Virus record (IMG/VR): IMGVR_UViG_3300034782_000041
Location: 74,407-138,406 of that record
Length of the DNA stretch: 64,000 nt
Origin: a virus
Strand: one strand, 5' to 3'
The notes beneath the pieces are model-generated. The model was not told the DNA's origin. It searched no databases and saw nothing but the letters and a program-made list of their open reading frames with translations. A program made the position numbers and the translations under genes. Below, piece by piece: positions 12,510-17,735 of this stretch (its first letter is position 1; each line of letters starts with the position of its first letter).

Positions 12510-13124
12510 TCAGTCTTCGTAGAGAATGCCGCGAAGAAGTTCTAGAGCTTCGCTCTCAGAGGTAATAGCACCCATCGCGATTCCATCGAACACCCAGCGT
12601 GCTTTCTGGATGGCAGTCTGCGCGCGCTTCGGTGCCATCCGCGTGGCAGGGTCTGACTTCGACGTTTGCGCTTTGGGTCCGTTGTTCGTGCGCTTGTAGT
12701 TTTCGCAGGCGTCAGCCGAGTAGAGATAACGCCTCGGGTGGCCGTCCATGTTGACGGTAGGAATGCGCCCCTGCTTAGCAGCCCAGTTCACACCGCCTTT
12801 GGTCAGGCCTGTGATCCGCGCAGCTTCAGCCACGTCAACCCACCGGTCTGTGTCAATGGCACCATTCGATCCAGGCTTGCCGGCGGCACCGTTCGATCCA
12901 GGCTTGCGTGACCTCTTGCGTGGCTTCTTGCGTGGCTTTCGCTGAGCGGCGAACTTCGCAACATCAGCTTTGGAGTAAGCGTTGCGGTTCGGCCCGAGCC
13001 GTTTGCTGCGGATACGCTTTGAGCGCCCCAACTTCGCGATGTAGTCAGGGGTTACGTCGAGCAGCTTTGCAGCATCATGAGCTGACAGCCACGCCGCGGT
13101 GGACTTCACGGGAGGAACTGGCAT
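12510..13124 (-). CDS. putative DNA-binding protein with two helix-turn-helix-like segments
   Basis: AAKLLDVTPDYIAKL and VAEAARITGLTKGGVNWAAKQGRI resemble MerR/excisionase-type HTH; basic linker. Confidence 0.5.
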   Translation of the reverse strand: MPVPPVKSTAAWLSAHDAAKLLDVTPDYIAKLGRSKRIRSKRLGPNRNAYSKADVAKFAAQRKPRKKPRKRSRKPGSNGAAGKPGSNGAIDTDRWVDVAEAARITGLTKGGVNWAAKQGRIPTVNMDGHPRRYLYSADACENYKRTNNGPKAQTSKSDPATRMAPKRAQTAIQKARWVFDGIAMGAITSESEALELLRGILYED

Positions 13125-13300
13125 TCGTTCTCGTCTTTCGGTTTGCTCCCCACGCGTCGAGGAGTTGAGAGCAGTAGTACAGGGACGCGTCCTACCTCGT
13201 TTTTACCTAGAATTGATGCTGCGTGCAAGCTTCACGTCGATGATCGCGGACGCGATTTTAGCGTGCCATACCACCATCGTGAAGTACCCAAAAAAACGCG

Positions 13301-13540
13301 CTATGAATTCGTCGATGCAGGACCAAAAAATCCAGCGATCACATCGGCCAGGCTGCGCAGCTCCTGTTCAGCAAACCTGGCGTCTGCTTCGTCAATGCCA
13401 GAAGGAACAATAGCTACAAGGCGGCGACCGCTCGGTAGCTCAATCGCCATGACACTGTAGGTATCCCGAGGCATGTCGAGCCCGAGTGTTTCCCACCGTG
13501 CCTTCTTCACACGCACCACGATCGGATCGTCGCTGTCCAC
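13301..13540 (-). CDS. hypothetical protein
   Basis: 79-aa ORF immediately upstream (in coordinates) of the repeat array. Confidence 0.4.
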   Translation of the reverse strand: MDSDDPIVVRVKKARWETLGLDMPRDTYSVMAIELPSGRRLVAIVPSGIDEADARFAEQELRSLADVIAGFFGPASTNS

Positions 13541-13583
13541 GTCACTAAACTCCTCTTTCTTGTTTTCTGCCGGACCCGGACAC

Positions 13584-14145
13584 GTCTAGCCATCGAGCCA
13601 GCATTCTGGGACCACCTGGTGTTGATCTACGGCGTCTCGATTGGGTAGCCATCGAGCTAGCATTCCGGGACACCCGTCCTCGCGTTCTCTGTCACAGTTA
13701 TCGCACGCAGTGTAGTCTGGTTCGTTGTTGTAGCCGCACTCGACACATTTCCAAATGAGTCCAGCACGGATCATGGCTGATTCAATTGCATCGGATTCAT
13801 CATCTTCGAGCTAGCATTCCGGGTCGCGACTTTGAGACCGCGCGCCAGGTTGTCGCTCGCGTCTCGATTGGGTAGCCATCGAGCTAGCATTCTGGGTTCG
13901 ATCTCGACGCGTCGAAAGACGAGCTAGGCTGTCTCGATTGGGTAGCCTCGATCCCAAATCCGACGTCTCGATTGAGTAGTCATCGAGCTAGCATTCCGGG
14001 TCTTCGTTGGTTGCGGGGCCGAGGTCTCGATTGAATAGTCATCGAGCTAGCATGGTTGTCGTCGCCCTTGGTGCTCAAGTCTCGATTGAATAGCCATCGA
14101 GCTAGCATGATTGTCGTCGCCCTTGGTGCTCAAGTCTCGATTGAA
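13584..14145 (-). CRISPR. degenerate distal block of CRISPR array (truncated and variant copies of the 36-bp repeat; includes a 55-bp tandem duplication)
   Basis: Full copies at 13634-13669, 13861-13896, 13965-14000; truncated copies at 13584-13610, 13808-13823, 13931-13947, 14024-14053, 14079-14108, 14134-14145; intervening segments 23-37 bp plus one 138-bp segment; units 14024-14078 and 14079-14133 are a tandem duplicate. Confidence 0.55.
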
Positions 14146-14185
14146 AAGGGATGCTCCCCTGACCGACAAGGAAGCATTCAAGCTG

Positions 14186-14518
14186 CTACATGCCAGTCGC
14201 CTCGACGACCTTCTTGATGATCTTTTCGAGTTTGGCGTACTTCTTCGTGAAGGCGGCTTCGTACCCGGAATGGTAGATACCGACGTCCGGCGTCAGGTAC
14301 GCCTGTAGCACGCTTTTGAGTACGATCTCGGTGTTCGGATTGGCGTACTGCAACTCGTAAATAGCCTCCCGAGCCACATTGATCACCACCTCCGCCTTTT
14401 CCCGCTCATATGGTTGTAGGAGGTCTTCCAGAGTCTCGATCAATCGGTCGGCGGCAGACACCAACGTTTCACGGACCTGTGGATCCGTTCTTTTCTTCGG
14501 TCTCGGTTTCATTCCCAT
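14186..14518 (-). CDS. hypothetical 110-aa protein encoded inside the CRISPR array (between the two repeat blocks)
   Basis: ORF with GGAGGA RBS 6 nt upstream of ATG (minus strand …acggaggactgaaATG); flanked on both sides by array repeats. Confidence 0.5.
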   Translation of the reverse strand: MGMKPRPKKRTDPQVRETLVSAADRLIETLEDLLQPYEREKAEVVINVAREAIYELQYANPNTEIVLKSVLQAYLTPDVGIYHSGYEAAFTKKYAKLEKIIKKVVEATGM

Positions 14519-14550
14519 TTCAGTCCTCCGTGTCTACATCCTGGCGTGGC

Positions 14551-14951
14551 GTCTTGATTGAATAGCCATCGAGCTAGCATTCCGGGGGGCCGGCCACGGA
14601 AAAACACCGCTGGCCCCGTTTTGTAGTCTCGATTGGGTAGCCATCGAGCTAGCATTCCGGGTCTGGGGCGCGAACGCCTTCGGGCTCGGCTCGATACGGT
14701 CTCGATTGAGTAGCCATCGAGCTAGCATTCCGGGGAGCACCCCGAGGAGCGAACTGGCTTCCGCTACGCGTCTCGATTGAGTAGCCATCGAGCTAGCATT
14801 TCGGGTGGCAGAAAGCTTTGGCCGCGGCAATTGCACGCGAGCTGTCTCGATTGAGTAGTCATCGAGCTGGCATTCCGGGGCGGCTGCGCCAGTGGTTTGA
14901 AACGCACACCCGACTGTCTCGATTGAGTAGCCATCGAGCTAGCATTCCGGG
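14551..14951 (-). CRISPR. CRISPR array, six 36-bp direct repeats (consensus plus-strand GTCTCGATTGAGTAGCCATCGAGCTAGCATTCCGGG) with five unique 35-39 bp spacers
   Basis: Repeats at 14551, 14626, 14699, 14770, 14844, 14916; spacers 39/37/35/38/36 bp; each repeat contains inverted repeat CTCGAT…ATCGAG (6-bp stem, 9-nt loop); variation among copies is confined to the loop. Confidence 0.8.
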
Positions 14952-16522
14952 GGCACCTCGTTTTTCTTGTGCCGTTTCGCGAACCTGGAGGTCGTTTTTC
15001 GAGCGGTAGGTTTTTTCCATTTGCCGGCTTGGTAGAGGGCCCACATGTTTCGGGTGCTTATGTCGTCGCAGTCTCGTTGCGTACCACACCCCTCGCAACG
15101 AAGCATGCGTTGTCCGTTCACGGGAGTGATTGTGCCACAATCGGGGCAACGCGCACTCGTGTGCTTCGCTTCTACGATCCGCATTCCATCGGCGCCAAAC
15201 ACTTCCCGTAGCACCTCCACTGTTTCTCCTGGTGCCGCATGTTGTCCTTGCCGTTGAGCCTTCTGAGGCAGCCCGTGTTCCTCCTTGATCTTCTTGTGCC
15301 CTGTATTCTTGACGATGACAGCCGCGTATTGACAGCGTAGCTCACGCACCCATTCACGCAGCGCTGCGCGACGTCCGGTTCGGCTACGCCGCCAGCAACC
15401 GCACTCATACCGCCAGAGATGCATTTCGCGTGCAACCCACGCGTCTTGATCCGCGGTGAGTACTCCTAGACTACGTAGTCTTCGTACAGCCTTTTGGCAG
15501 GATTTCGTCTTACCGACTACAGGCCAGCACGCCCGTACTTCGTTGAGGCGCTTGTCACGGTGTGAGTGGATCTTCTCCGCACGGTCAGCGCGTGCCGTCC
15601 AACTGACTGGCATGCGTAGCTCACTCACGTGACCGGCCGCATCACGCGCGTAGCCCAATCGCCAGGAGCCGTCAGGCATCTTGCGCCAGCTGACGTCTAC
15701 CGCAACGACGCCTTCCTCGGCCGCGTCCGTCCTTGGGTCAGCATCCTTGCAAGTGAACGCGACCGACCAAACCTGCTGATCGGCATTGTAACGCCGCCGC
15801 ACATGGACATGTGTGATTTGTCCAGACAGCTCGCGGTGCTTTTCTATGCGGATCGGGGTGCAGAAAATGGGTGTAGCCCCATTGCTGCCGATCCTAATTT
15901 CTACCGTGTGCCGTCCAAGTCCGTTACGTGTACGTCTTCCTGTCCGTGCGTCTGGCGCTTTGTGAGTCTGTACGTACCGATGAGGATCTCTTCCGGGTTG
16001 AATTTGGACGGCCGCGACGTCTCCTTTGCGCCACGACCGGAATTTCACCGGGCGGAGCAGAGACGTGTGTTGCCAGGCTGCCGAGAAGGCCTGTTCGATC
16101 ACGTTGTAGGTTCCCCAGTAGAGTCCTTTCGCCGCCCATGTAGTTCGTAATGGACGAACGTCGAGTAGCGGTATAGCACGGGTAGCTGCCCACACTGCAT
16201 TCCAGTGCGCGCGGCAAGCCGCACACTTACAGTTGTCGTGCTCTGCCGGGTGCGCCTCGCGGTGCTTTTCGCACTCAGCGCAGTCGCAGTCGTACTTCTC
16301 GTGGGGAGGCGACGTCTTCGCCCATGCATCTTGGCACTTCTCGCACTGACATCTACCTCGGTGCGGTGGTGGTGGCGGAGATTCGCCGCCCCATCCGATT
16401 TGGCGCCGCTTGTTCTCCGCTTCAACGAGCGCGTTGTAGTACTGACGGCCTAGCCTCATCTGCCTGAGCAAGTTCGGATCTTGGCTAGGGCGGGCTCCAT
16501 ACTTGTAAACGCGTGCTGGCAT
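14939..16522 (-). CDS. cas12: TnpB/Cas12-family RuvC nuclease-like protein, candidate single-effector of a type V CRISPR-Cas system
   Basis: N-terminus VYKYGARPSQDPNLLRQMRLGRQYYNAL matches the TnpB/Cas12 WED start; GVVAVDVSW (RuvC-I-like); GMRIVEAKHTSARCPDCG…RCEGCGTQRDCDDISTRNM (zinc finger plus RuvC-III RD motif); probable start 16522 with AAGGAG RBS; 3' end overlaps the first array repeat. Confidence 0.8.
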   Translation of the reverse strand: MPARVYKYGARPSQDPNLLRQMRLGRQYYNALVEAENKRRQIGWGGESPPPPPHRGRCQCEKCQDAWAKTSPPHEKYDCDCAECEKHREAHPAEHDNCKCAACRAHWNAVWAATRAIPLLDVRPLRTTWAAKGLYWGTYNVIEQAFSAAWQHTSLLRPVKFRSWRKGDVAAVQIQPGRDPHRYVQTHKAPDARTGRRTRNGLGRHTVEIRIGSNGATPIFCTPIRIEKHRELSGQITHVHVRRRYNADQQVWSVAFTCKDADPRTDAAEEGVVAVDVSWRKMPDGSWRLGYARDAAGHVSELRMPVSWTARADRAEKIHSHRDKRLNEVRACWPVVGKTKSCQKAVRRLRSLGVLTADQDAWVAREMHLWRYECGCWRRSRTGRRAALREWVRELRCQYAAVIVKNTGHKKIKEEHGLPQKAQRQGQHAAPGETVEVLREVFGADGMRIVEAKHTSARCPDCGTITPVNGQRMLRCEGCGTQRDCDDISTRNMWALYQAGKWKKPTARKTTSRFAKRHKKNEVPPEC

Positions 16523-16556
16523 ACATGCTCCTTTGCTTGGCTCCTCGGAGCCCCAT

Positions 16557-16886
16557 TCAACCAACGTTGCAAGCAGCTAGAGCTGCAATGATCTTCTCCG
16601 ACATGCCTTGTAGGCCTTTACCGTATTCGCGGATTCCACGCACCGTGAGTAGAATATCGCGGAGTTGATCCTGGTCATCGCTGACACGCTGAATGAGGTC
16701 AGCTACCAGGTCGAGAAGGCCAGCTTGCTCTTCTGGCGACAGCGGTTGCAGGATGCCCTCACGAAGCTGTGTGGCCACGATACGGGCCATCTCAGGGCGC
16801 ATTGTCGAGAGGGCTGCCGCAGCACCGCCAGGAACCGTGTATTCGTGTGCGGGATCATCTGTCATCAGCGTTTTCCTCCTCCTCAT
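16557..16886 (-). CDS. hypothetical protein
   Basis: 109-aa ORF directly upstream of the cas12-like gene; no Cas1/Cas2 features. Confidence 0.45.
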   Translation of the reverse strand: MRRRKTLMTDDPAHEYTVPGGAAAALSTMRPEMARIVATQLREGILQPLSPEEQAGLLDLVADLIQRVSDDQDQLRDILLTVRGIREYGKGLQGMSEKIIAALAACNVG

Positions 16887-16910
16887 CGATAGCGTCTTCG
16901 CTATCTCTCC

Positions 16911-17735
16911 TCAAGTCAGGTTGGACGTTTCCGACGCTGATTGAACGATCTCCACTGCGTTGGCCTCGCTCAGATCGAATTCGTCCTTGAGCTTCTTGAT
17001 CAAGCCGGCACGGAACAACGCAGTACGTTCGACGTTCGCCTCCCTGTACTTACCGATGACCTGCAACACAGGCGCCCAGTCTTGGATGAGACCGTCCAGC
17101 GCTTGCGTAACACGGTCAGCGGACGCGATTTTGCGCAGCTCGGCAACGTTGTCACAGACATCGTTGATCACGTCAGCGATTTGTTTTGGCGCGTTGGCGT
17201 CGAGTACGCTGTGGACGATGGCAGTACTGGCCAGCTTTCCTATGCTCGGTACCTCGGCGCTGCTCTGCGCAGCTCCTGCACTGTATATGTTGCGGATACG
17301 TTTGAGCCGATCAATACGGGCCGCGAGATCGCTGAGCCCTGTAGAGGCTGCATCTGCGGTACCAGCTTCAGCTTCAGCTTCAGCTTCAGCTTCAGCTTCA
17401 GCTTCAGCTTCAGCTTCATCTGTGTCATCCTCGTCCGTAATCTCACGAACCGCGAGCATCACGTCACCAAAACGAACCGTGTCGCCGACTTTGACGGCTG
17501 CTTTGTTGATCTGCTTCTCGTTGATGAACGTACCTTGCACGCTACCCAGATCGACTAGGTGGACAATGCCTCCAGGCTCGCACTCGAACACCGCGTGCAT
17601 CCGACTGACTGAAGGATGGTTGAGCTTCAACCCCGAGCGTTTCATTTTTCCAATCTTGATCACACTGCCGCGGCAGGTGTGCACCTCACCTTGCGTGCCG
17701 TCACTGTTGATCTCAGCCAATACGATTGCCCTCAT
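16911..17735 (-). CDS. FHA (forkhead-associated) domain protein with (EA)7 repeat
   Basis: N-terminal GSVIKIG…SRMHAVFE…LVDLGSVQGTFINEKQI…GDTVRFG fits the FHA fold; (GCTTCA)n encodes EAEAEAEAEAEAEA. Confidence 0.7.
   Translation of the reverse strand: MRAIVLAEINSDGTQGEVHTCRGSVIKIGKMKRSGLKLNHPSVSRMHAVFECEPGGIVHLVDLGSVQGTFINEKQINKAAVKVGDTVRFGDVMLAVREITDEDDTDEAEAEAEAEAEAEAEAEAGTADAASTGLSDLAARIDRLKRIRNIYSAGAAQSSAEVPSIGKLASTAIVHSVLDANAPKQIADVINDVCDNVAELRKIASADRVTQALDGLIQDWAPVLQVIGKYREANVERTALFRAGLIKKLKDEFDLSEANAVEIVQSASETSNLT

Follow-up and report, generated by a model that had tools for sequence, protein, structure and literature searches.

Comparative evidence for a Cas12m-type pseudoknot guide scaffold in the repeats of a phage-borne CRISPR array

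A stretch of viral DNA 64,000 nucleotides (nt) long (IMG/VR record IMGVR_UViG_3300034782_000041, positions 74,407 to 138,406, hereafter the window, in whose numbering positions are given) carries a CRISPR array at 14551–14951, next to the gene of a miniature Cas12-type effector and on the same, minus, strand. Sequence comparison of 38 related arrays indicates that the repeat RNA is selected for its secondary structure, and covariation among them shows each 36-nt repeat RNA as a predicted H-type pseudoknot, the known guide scaffold of Cas12m, placed directly 5′ of the guide. We conclude that this is very probably the working, gene-proximal part of an array serving a phage-encoded 527-residue effector of the Cas12m type (subtype V-M). 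The array is an ordinary and cleanly supported instance of a known system, in a divergent phage-borne V-M locus.

14551–14951, minus strand: intact, effector-proximal CRISPR array of six 36-nt direct repeats and five spacers of 35–39 nt
14916–14951, 14844–14879, 14770–14805, 14699–14734, 14626–14661 and 14551–14586, minus strand: the six repeats
14939–16522, minus strand: effector gene, encoding the 527-residue miniature Cas12m-type protein; its start is Met15 of the mechanically called open reading frame (ORF) 14939–16564

The repeats recur with a start-to-start period of 71–75 nt. Their plus-strand consensus is GTCTCGATTGAGTAGCCATCGAGCTAGCATTCCGGG, which includes CTCGAT-N9-ATCGAG, and on the effector strand the sense repeat reads CCCGGAAUGCUAGCUCGAUGGCUACUCAAUCGAGAC, in which the stem-loop stops 2 nt (AC) short of the spacer. 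The array is thus real, and the 6-bp stem that an earlier, sequence-only reading had seen in each repeat is present in the six copies, as is the minus-strand repeat it quoted. The elements of the fold are given below for the first repeat, and the last repeat, after which there is no further spacer-repeat unit, is listed with them; folded singly, this terminal copy loses the hairpin.

14916–14951, minus strand: first repeat, taken as the structure example; sense position p equals 14952 minus the coordinate
p14–19 (14933–14938) with p29–34 (14918–14923), minus strand: helix H2, the 6-bp stem of the sequence-only reading, placed by covariation and by the CRISPR RNA (crRNA) positions of PmCas12m and Cas12m2
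p20–28 (14924–14932), minus strand: 9-nt loop
p9–11 GCU (14941–14943) with p20–22 GGC (14930–14932), minus strand: helix H1, placed by covariation and by the PmCas12m and Cas12m2 crRNA positions
G13 and A35 of the first repeat: candidate non-canonical pair; C36 is nt −1, adjoining the guide
14551–14586, minus strand: terminal degenerate repeat, with G32→A (14555), a C-A mismatch in the sense helix, and C25→U (14562) in the loop

The comparison is based on 23 close metagenomic homologues of the effector (36–100% identity), whose alignment was used for scans that returned 18 viral (IMG/VR) and 61 metagenomic loci; five look-ups of encoding contigs added context, and 86 loci, designated by L numbers below, were fetched overall. 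In about 50 of these the effector gene is followed closely, on its 3′ side, by an array on the same strand, and a common repeat plan is seen in the effector sense, about 36 nt long and comprising a conserved G, a stem arm of 6–7 nt, a loop of about 9 nt, the complementary arm and a terminal AC. The stem arms themselves vary by locus (CTCGAT/ATCGAG, CTCGAC/GTCGAG, CTCAAT/ATTGAG, CGCATC/GATGCG, CGCAGT/ACTGCG, CCCAGC/GCTGGG and others). In an alignment of 38 distinct consensus repeats, one per related array, 96% of the cells of this main helix are paired and all six pairs have changed on both sides. Its covariation score was matched by none of 500 shuffles, sliding the partner arm by 1–3 columns lowers pairing to 33–44%, and RNAalifold, given no prior input, predicts the same helix, in agreement with the covariation.

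Variation within arrays was assessed in 374 repeat copies from the 38 arrays, each compared with the consensus of its own array. The 3′ part of the loop is substituted at a rate of 3.9% and the 5′ tail at 3.3%, compared with 0.8–1.6% at helix positions and 1.1% in the terminal AC, and the helix substitutions mostly preserve pairing (46 Watson-Crick, 20 G-U, 8 A-C and 13 other). Copies with a compensating double change are found in the arrays of L008, L016, L021, L024, L031 and L067, and the array of L002 (6514–6845) has five strongly differing repeats with stems matched in each (TGCAAC/GTTGCA, CGCAG/CTGCG, CCCAAC/GTTGGG, CGCAGC/GCTGCG).

A second helix is evident in the same alignment, where the three bases just 5′ of the stem (columns 10–12, p9–11 in the window sense repeat) covary with the first three bases of the loop, as in GCC/GGC, GGC/GCC, ACC/GGU, ACCC/GGGU, AAGGC/GCCUU, AGGGU/ACCCU, AAAGC/GCUUU and ACGCC/GGCGU. 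Its three core pairs are 84% paired, compared with 36–57% for slid controls, and none of 500 shuffles matches the score. The two helices cross, which makes the fold an H-type pseudoknot. In the window repeat G(−28)C(−27)U(−26) lies opposite G(−17)G(−16)C(−15), and C(−23) to U(−18) opposite A(−8) to G(−3). The bases framing the main helix are likewise conserved across the 38 repeats (G before the stem in 33, A(−2) in 37, C(−1) in 35), and by analogy G(−24) and A(−2) would be the equivalent of the non-canonical G:A pair of Cas12m2. Support for the second helix is strong in the family and weaker in the window repeat. An alternative helix within the repeat, UAGC/GCUA, spotted by eye, is broken by the G→A variant in three copies and is without covariation support.

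The predicted scaffold coincides with those determined for characterised Cas12m proteins. In the cryo-electron microscopy (cryo-EM) structure of the PmCas12m crRNA, G(−28)–C(−26) pairs with G(−15)–C(−17) and C(−23)–C(−20) with G(−3)–G(−6), and PmCas12m pre-crRNA is processed after repeat nt 2–3 (bioRxiv 10.64898/2026.03.26.714355); the window pseudoknot helices lie at identical nucleotide positions. The 36-nt Cas12m2 scaffold has the G(−23):A(−2) non-canonical pair, a 6-bp pseudoknot helix C(−22..−17):G(−8..−3) and a coaxially stacked stem, with A(−24) flipped out, C(−1) read base-specifically by His269 and Arg270, and the 5′ tail of the repeat disordered (PMC10442227); the window scaffold is comparable, its positions shifted by one loop nucleotide. 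The repeat of MsCas12m from M. silvanus, GTAGCAACGCCTAGCTCAGAGGCTTAGAAGCTGAGAC, has the same layout as the window repeat. The comparative data provide independent support, from sequences only, for the two-helix pseudoknot seen by cryo-EM.

Selection on RNA structure had been proposed from the window variants, on the ground that substitutions were confined to the hairpin loop and that the one stem change kept its pair. The proposal stands at the scale of the 38 arrays, but not on that ground, the window variants being too few and one of them misread. Although the three loop variants quoted are all present, the six substitutions relative to consensus fall as follows.

14859, 14636 and 14562 (plus-strand positions): substitutions in the loop
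14555 (plus-strand position): substitution in the stem
14869 and 14801 (plus-strand positions): substitutions in the 5′ part of the sense repeat

The loop accounts for 25% of the repeat, and three hits there out of six are not significant (binomial P about 0.17); selection therefore cannot be shown from the window by itself. Nor is the change at 14555 a U-G wobble on the minus-strand RNA, as had been claimed: it is C→T on the plus strand (G→A on the minus), giving U-G on plus-strand RNA and a C-A mismatch on minus-strand RNA. Read in the sense direction, the repeat that carries the change is the last of the array, and terminal repeats are commonly degenerate.

The assignment of the array to the effector strand, which the sequence-only reading also made, is supported. 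Pairs of G-U outnumber A-C in the main helix by 9 to 3 in the consensus repeats, and the substitutions seen at helix positions within arrays likewise favour G-U, by 20 to 8; as G-U pairs work on one strand only, this excess points to the effector strand. The conserved G...AC frame reads correctly only on that strand, matching Cas12m crRNAs of known polarity. Moreover the effector stop codon, TAG at 14939–14941, is nt 11–13 of the first repeat, and in 9 of 11 close loci the stop is likewise inside the first repeat, so that sense repeat sequence is necessarily part of the effector messenger RNA (mRNA) and no space is left for a leader. We also counted towards this strand that the arrays of both the window and L025 are intact gene-proximally and eroded distally. 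A promoter and terminator scan of 13300–16900 found no promoter-like site on either strand and terminator-like sites no commoner than in shuffles, and was uninformative on strand. Minus-strand transcription of the array would then be a continuation of the effector transcript, without a leader.

The overlap of gene and array recurs among the relatives. The first repeat encodes the effector’s last 1–9 codons and stop in the window (14939–14951) and in L001, L003, L007, L008, L010, L025, L028 and L031; across loci the stop falls at repeat position 2, 11, 24 or 26, reaching nt 24–28, within the hairpin loop, in relatives. In MsCas12m, by contrast with the stop codon inside the first repeat of the window, gene and array are separated by about 150 nt.

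The effector itself is a Cas12m relative of subtype V-M, and not a Cas12a, Cas12i or Cas12j, as judged from sequence and a predicted structure. The start at 16522 is the one set for an identical 527-residue protein (P0001) in a public collection. A Pfam scan finds in it only the Cas12f1-like TNB zinc ribbon (PF07282). The best PADLOC model is Cas12u1 (1.3e-35), the former name of subtype V-M (formerly V-U1); PADLOC Cas12f models also match, at 4e-33, the model also covering V-U1-like sequences. Its only plasmid match is MsCas12m of Allomeiothermus (Meiothermus) silvanus (BLASTP, 26% identity over 542 columns, E 5e-24), which has been studied experimentally by Bigelyte et al. (PMC11013384). Searched against the Protein Data Bank (PDB), the profile of the 23 homologues matches Cas12m 23vw at 1.7e-37 (profile positions 7–466 of 492), Cas12m2 at 2e-21 and GoCas12m at 9e-15. 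Foldseek searches of the PDB with an AlphaFold2 model place Cas12m in the top four positions (8hhl, 8hio and 8hhm, Cas12m2, 5e-20 to 2e-18; 8pm4, GoCas12m, 8e-17), with TnpB and Cas12f at 4e-11 or weaker, nine orders of magnitude behind, and CasPhi, Cas12i and CasLambda far below. The Cas12m fold (WED, REC1/2, RuvC and TNB) is the closest structural neighbour, although template modelling scores (TM-scores) are only about 0.55, a usual level when a protein of several domains is modelled with no nucleic acid present. The residues of Cas12m2 that contact the scaffold from the WED domain, R245 and H269/R270, correspond in the alignment to R204 and H229/R230, which do not vary among the 23 homologues, and the HR motif is present in most distant relatives too. 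The ‘Cas12 hacker’ Cas12p, a miniature phage Cas12 that uses a single guide RNA, was considered and belongs to a different family, with a fold match of only 2.8e-7.

The region of effector residues about 55–110 (roughly 16195–16360) has a PPH...CxCxxCxxHW motif in all family members, with C100 and C103 invariant and H54, C98 and H106 nearly so; to judge from these residues it could bind zinc in the REC region. The window effector and one homologue (P0002) share an insertion of about 40 residues with two extra CxCxxC units, modelled with low confidence (predicted local distance difference test, pLDDT, 50–67).

The resemblance to Cas12m (Cas12m2 from Mycolicibacterium/Thermithiobacillus, GoCas12m, MsCas12m, PmCas12m) extends beyond the protein fold. 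Shared features are a compact TnpB-like effector with a non-canonical RuvC triad, a 36-nt repeat with the two-helix pseudoknot, G...A frame and C(−1), a scaffold 5′ of the guide, no signal of a trans-activating CRISPR RNA (tracrRNA), the absence of adaptation genes nearby, and carriage by mobile elements. The differences are those of a divergent member: the nearest characterised protein, MsCas12m, is only 26% identical, the window effector is shorter (527 residues compared with 536–614) and has an invariant Lys at RuvC-II (D-K-D), the hairpin loop is 9 nt rather than 8, and the window type is carried by uncultivated phages. V-M systems were already known on plasmids and some prophages (PMC11656645), V-U1-like effectors have been noted in a landfill virome, and a 2026 preprint presented a myxophage Cas12m of 610 residues, with a D-E-D triad, as the first from a phage. 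Against that single case, the 18 IMG/VR loci of one scan indicate that Cas12m-type systems are common on viral contigs.

The sequence-only reading had described a short stem-loop immediately 5′ of the guide, as in Cas12a, Cas12i and Cas12j. A structured element is indeed present there, but it is a helix of a pseudoknot and not a free hairpin, and the family is Cas12m; the likeness to those three is in guide layout only and does not extend to membership of their subtypes. Cas12a shares a repeat-derived handle 5′ of the guide, a pseudoknot fold, a self-processing effector and the lack of a tracrRNA, but its REC and Nuc domains are unrelated, its handle is 19–20 nt with a 5-bp stem and a 4-nt loop, and it cuts DNA; its PADLOC match to the window effector is only E 0.049 and it is not among the 50 listed Foldseek matches. 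Cas12j (CasPhi), which is phage-encoded like the window effector, and Cas12i likewise use a lone crRNA, its repeat hairpin adjoining the guide, and do without a tracrRNA; yet both are active nucleases, their repeats are without the two-helix layout, and their fold matches (CasPhi-2 2.5e-6; Cas12i 1e-3 or worse, Cas12i1 1.5e-3) compare with 5e-20 for Cas12m2. Cas12f and TnpB share the RuvC and zinc-ribbon (TNB) core (PF07282), with fold matches around 1e-10 to 1e-11, and the Cas12m pseudoknot resembles the triplex-pseudoknot core of the TnpB right-end RNA (reRNA). Cas12f, however, has a long tracrRNA and acts as a dimer, and TnpB uses an RNA of roughly 150 nt from the transposon end, unlike the CRISPR array and scaffold of about 30 nt in the window. 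On sequence and model the effector is not a Cas12f (V-F), there being no anti-repeat beyond chance in the 38 loci and Cas12f structures matching at 1e-10 compared with 5e-20 for Cas12m2.

That the guide works without a repeat:anti-repeat duplex, as the sequence-only reading held, agrees with the reverse-complement matches to the repeat, which are within chance in the 38 loci. The longest per locus is 9–13 nt with one mismatch, within the shuffled-repeat null save for one exception that lies inside an array; this test is blind to a tracrRNA with weak or interrupted pairing. Other Cas12m proteins have been shown experimentally to need no tracrRNA, and an Rfam scan of the whole window at gathering thresholds gave no match. 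The window has a sole anti-repeat candidate.

14264–14276, plus strand: inverted partial repeat copy (12 of the repeat’s first 13 nt), inside the 110-residue ORF
14186–14518, minus strand: 110-residue ORF that separates the intact half of the array from the eroded one; its ribosome-binding site is GGAGGA

The match at 14264–14276 would be expected only 0.06 times as an exact 13-mer, but its length of 13 is within the null for all repeat sub-windows over 11 kb (mean 11.9, maximum 14), it spans only the 5′ tail of the repeat, and its host ORF is absent from all relatives; we judge it chance or a remnant.

The RuvC site of the effector departs from those of other Cas12m. By alignment the triad is D276-K405-D486, in which the RuvC-I Asp (VAVDVSWR) and RuvC-III Asp (RDCDD) are present and the RuvC-II residue is Lys (window IVKNT, compared with IVEDF in MsCas12m, IVLEE in 23vw and VLVDD in Cas12m2). 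K405 is invariant in all 23 close homologues, and of 22 viral and metagenomic relatives at greater distance, 21 have Glu there. The triads listed for four published Cas12m clades are HEK/HQK, HDD, DED/NED and DED/DND/NED, and D-K-D is not among these (PMC10442227). The alignment, and analogy with other Cas12m, suggest that the effector probably binds DNA without cutting it, D-K-D being consistent with an inactive two-metal site.

By analogy with characterised Cas12m the system would then work as follows. The effector would bind the scaffold through its WED and RuvC domains, whose contact residues are conserved, and the pre-crRNA would be cut near the 5′ end of each repeat; self-processing of pre-crRNA by the effector has been reported for MsCas12m and PmCas12m (for PmCas12m, bioRxiv 10.64898/2026.03.26.714355). 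No tracrRNA would be needed, and about 17–20 nt of spacer would guide the complex to double-stranded DNA, where the target-bound complex may block transcription or replication of a competing mobile element or host locus, as for other Cas12m.

Several observations weigh against this interpretation, and some of them are what other readings of the array would be built on. The window second helix, GCU/GGC, has only 3 bp including one U-G wobble, and G(−16)→A, at loop position 2, removes one of its pairs in 3 of 11 full copies; the outer two second-helix pairs tested are poorly supported in the alignment, and columns 9–24 are unpaired in 22 of 38 sequences. The repeat might on these grounds be a plain 6-bp stem-loop handle as in Cas12i or Cas12j, the second helix not forming in the crRNA of this phage. 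Folding of the repeat in silico, a check that the sequence-only reading had suggested, does return the hairpin (−6.8 kcal/mol), and the hairpin only, but single repeats fold no better than shuffles (z-score −0.46, 53 of 200 shuffles folding at least as well), and thermodynamic folding was not used as evidence. Pseudoknots are in any case beyond what minimum-free-energy programs predict, whereas the three core pairs covary over the 38 arrays, well above the slid controls, and are the same pairs at the same positions in the PmCas12m structure, so that we consider the plain handle improbable.

The stem substitution at 14555, taken at face value, favours the plus strand, and strand, processing site and guide length are all things that we infer. 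An array transcribed from the plus strand, antisense to the effector gene, or one used with a separate tracrRNA as in Cas12f, with 14264–14276 as the anti-repeat, could also call upon the PADLOC Cas12f matches, the rarity of that 13-nt inverted match and the want of a promoter-like site on either strand. This is in our judgement highly improbable: the G-U excess in both data sets and the polarity of the G...AC frame favour the effector strand, the stop inside the first repeat puts sense repeat in the effector mRNA, the 14555 change is in a terminal repeat, anti-repeat matches in the 38 loci are within the null, with the window match limited to the repeat 5′ tail in a non-conserved ORF, and the E-values of Cas12m structures are nine orders of magnitude better than those of Cas12f.

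Erosion has moreover affected half of the array region, as set out here.

13587–14148, minus strand: eroded distal continuation of the array, with five full-length repeat copies, two of which have diverged at the 5′ end, fragments from the 5′ and 3′ parts of the repeat, and short (19–23 nt) or fused spacers

Fragments, fused units and a 55-bp duplication in this part, and the ORF that interrupts the array, would suit a decaying, non-functional remnant whose intact stems reflect recent repeat duplication rather than present-day selection, as would the non-significant distribution of the window substitutions. Searches for spacer targets also found none: blastn of the whole array against 50,697 phage records gave no match, nor did exact searches of three spacers (21–22 nt) in IMG/VR, and comparison of all spacers with the window and the 86 loci matched only a spacer shared with L025, without a self-target. 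We nevertheless hold a remnant to be very improbable, given that the six gene-proximal repeats keep their 71–75-nt period and full-length spacers, the effector ORF is intact with RNA-contact residues invariant across the 23 homologues (here at 36–76% identity), compensatory changes across and within related arrays indicate long-term selection on structure, and one spacer has been kept in common with a relative of only 62% effector identity. Further points against the interpretation concern the protein. The AlphaFold2 model is of moderate quality (pLDDT 82, predicted template modelling score 0.58); loss of nuclease activity is read from the alignment, some D-E-D Cas12m proteins also fail to cut, and the D-K-D site may have an unexpected activity.

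On the V-M interpretation, strand, guide polarity and RNA scaffold are fixed for a very small (527-residue) phage Cas12m-type system, and guides can be designed directly as repeat nt −30 to −1 with about 20 nt of spacer appended. Both the D-K-D subclade and the overlap of gene and array are new, if modest, variations and may interest engineers of compact DNA-binding CRISPR tools. The overlap could have a regulatory consequence, which we advance tentatively. If processing occurs here after repeat nt 2–3, as in PmCas12m, the effector mRNA is cut upstream of its stop codon; by analogy, an effector binding or processing the first repeat would cut its own message there or clamp the pseudoknot over the stop, a negative feedback tying effector dosage to crRNA production. 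Were this so, the invariant D-K-D site would make the subclade a self-limiting, binding-only silencer of competitors or host genes. Feedback and silencer, taken jointly, we think unlikely.

The eroded continuation includes a 55-bp tandem duplication (14015–14148) in which the same spacer, TTGAGCACCAAGGGCGACGACAA, occurs three times, and short-period units of about 49–59 nt are found in the arrays of L003, L025, L031, L035, L065, L067, L068 and L073; the distal part of the related L025 array is eroded likewise. The 110-residue ORF that separates the two halves of the window array is without matches in Pfam, PHROG and PADLOC, and none of the 86 fetched loci has a homologue of it. A second small ORF lies within the eroded half.

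13586–13774, minus strand: 62-residue ORF with an N-terminal RanBP-type zinc ribbon (Pfam E 6e-6, narrowly missing the curated cut-off)

The reading frame of its C-terminal half runs through a full repeat (13634–13669) and a partial one; this may be a small gene caught up in the decay of the array.

The spacer at 14806–14843 is shared with L025 (2796–2831) at 92% identity with a 2-nt indel. It is second in the window array and the last complete one in that of L025, which, given the divergence of the two effectors noted above, indicates that spacers are inherited over long periods and that array order has been rearranged. A different arrangement is seen in L004 (6130–6170) and L005 (protein P0012), where a solitary repeat, GGATGCCAGCCCGGCGGCCTGAGTCGGGAC, overlaps the gene end with no detectable array within 5 kb; by analogy with TnpB-like or TldR-like systems it may provide a fixed single guide.

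The window is phage-like, with ribonucleotide reductase, an integrase, an HNH endonuclease, an ATPase and many small co-directional genes. A megablast of 13000–17000 against GenBank phages gave no match, no effector relatives were confirmed in 185,579 species-representative genomes, and Cas1, Cas2 and Cas4 were absent among about a dozen flanking ORFs scanned. Genes next to the relatives’ effectors encode a homologue of the anti-Thoeris protein Tad3 and a WGR-PARP protein (L003, 4510–4947; L001, 2102–3544), and an FHA-domain protein is encoded near the effector in both the window (16911–17735) and L001. The effector neighbourhood may thus be one of counter-defence or host-takeover genes.

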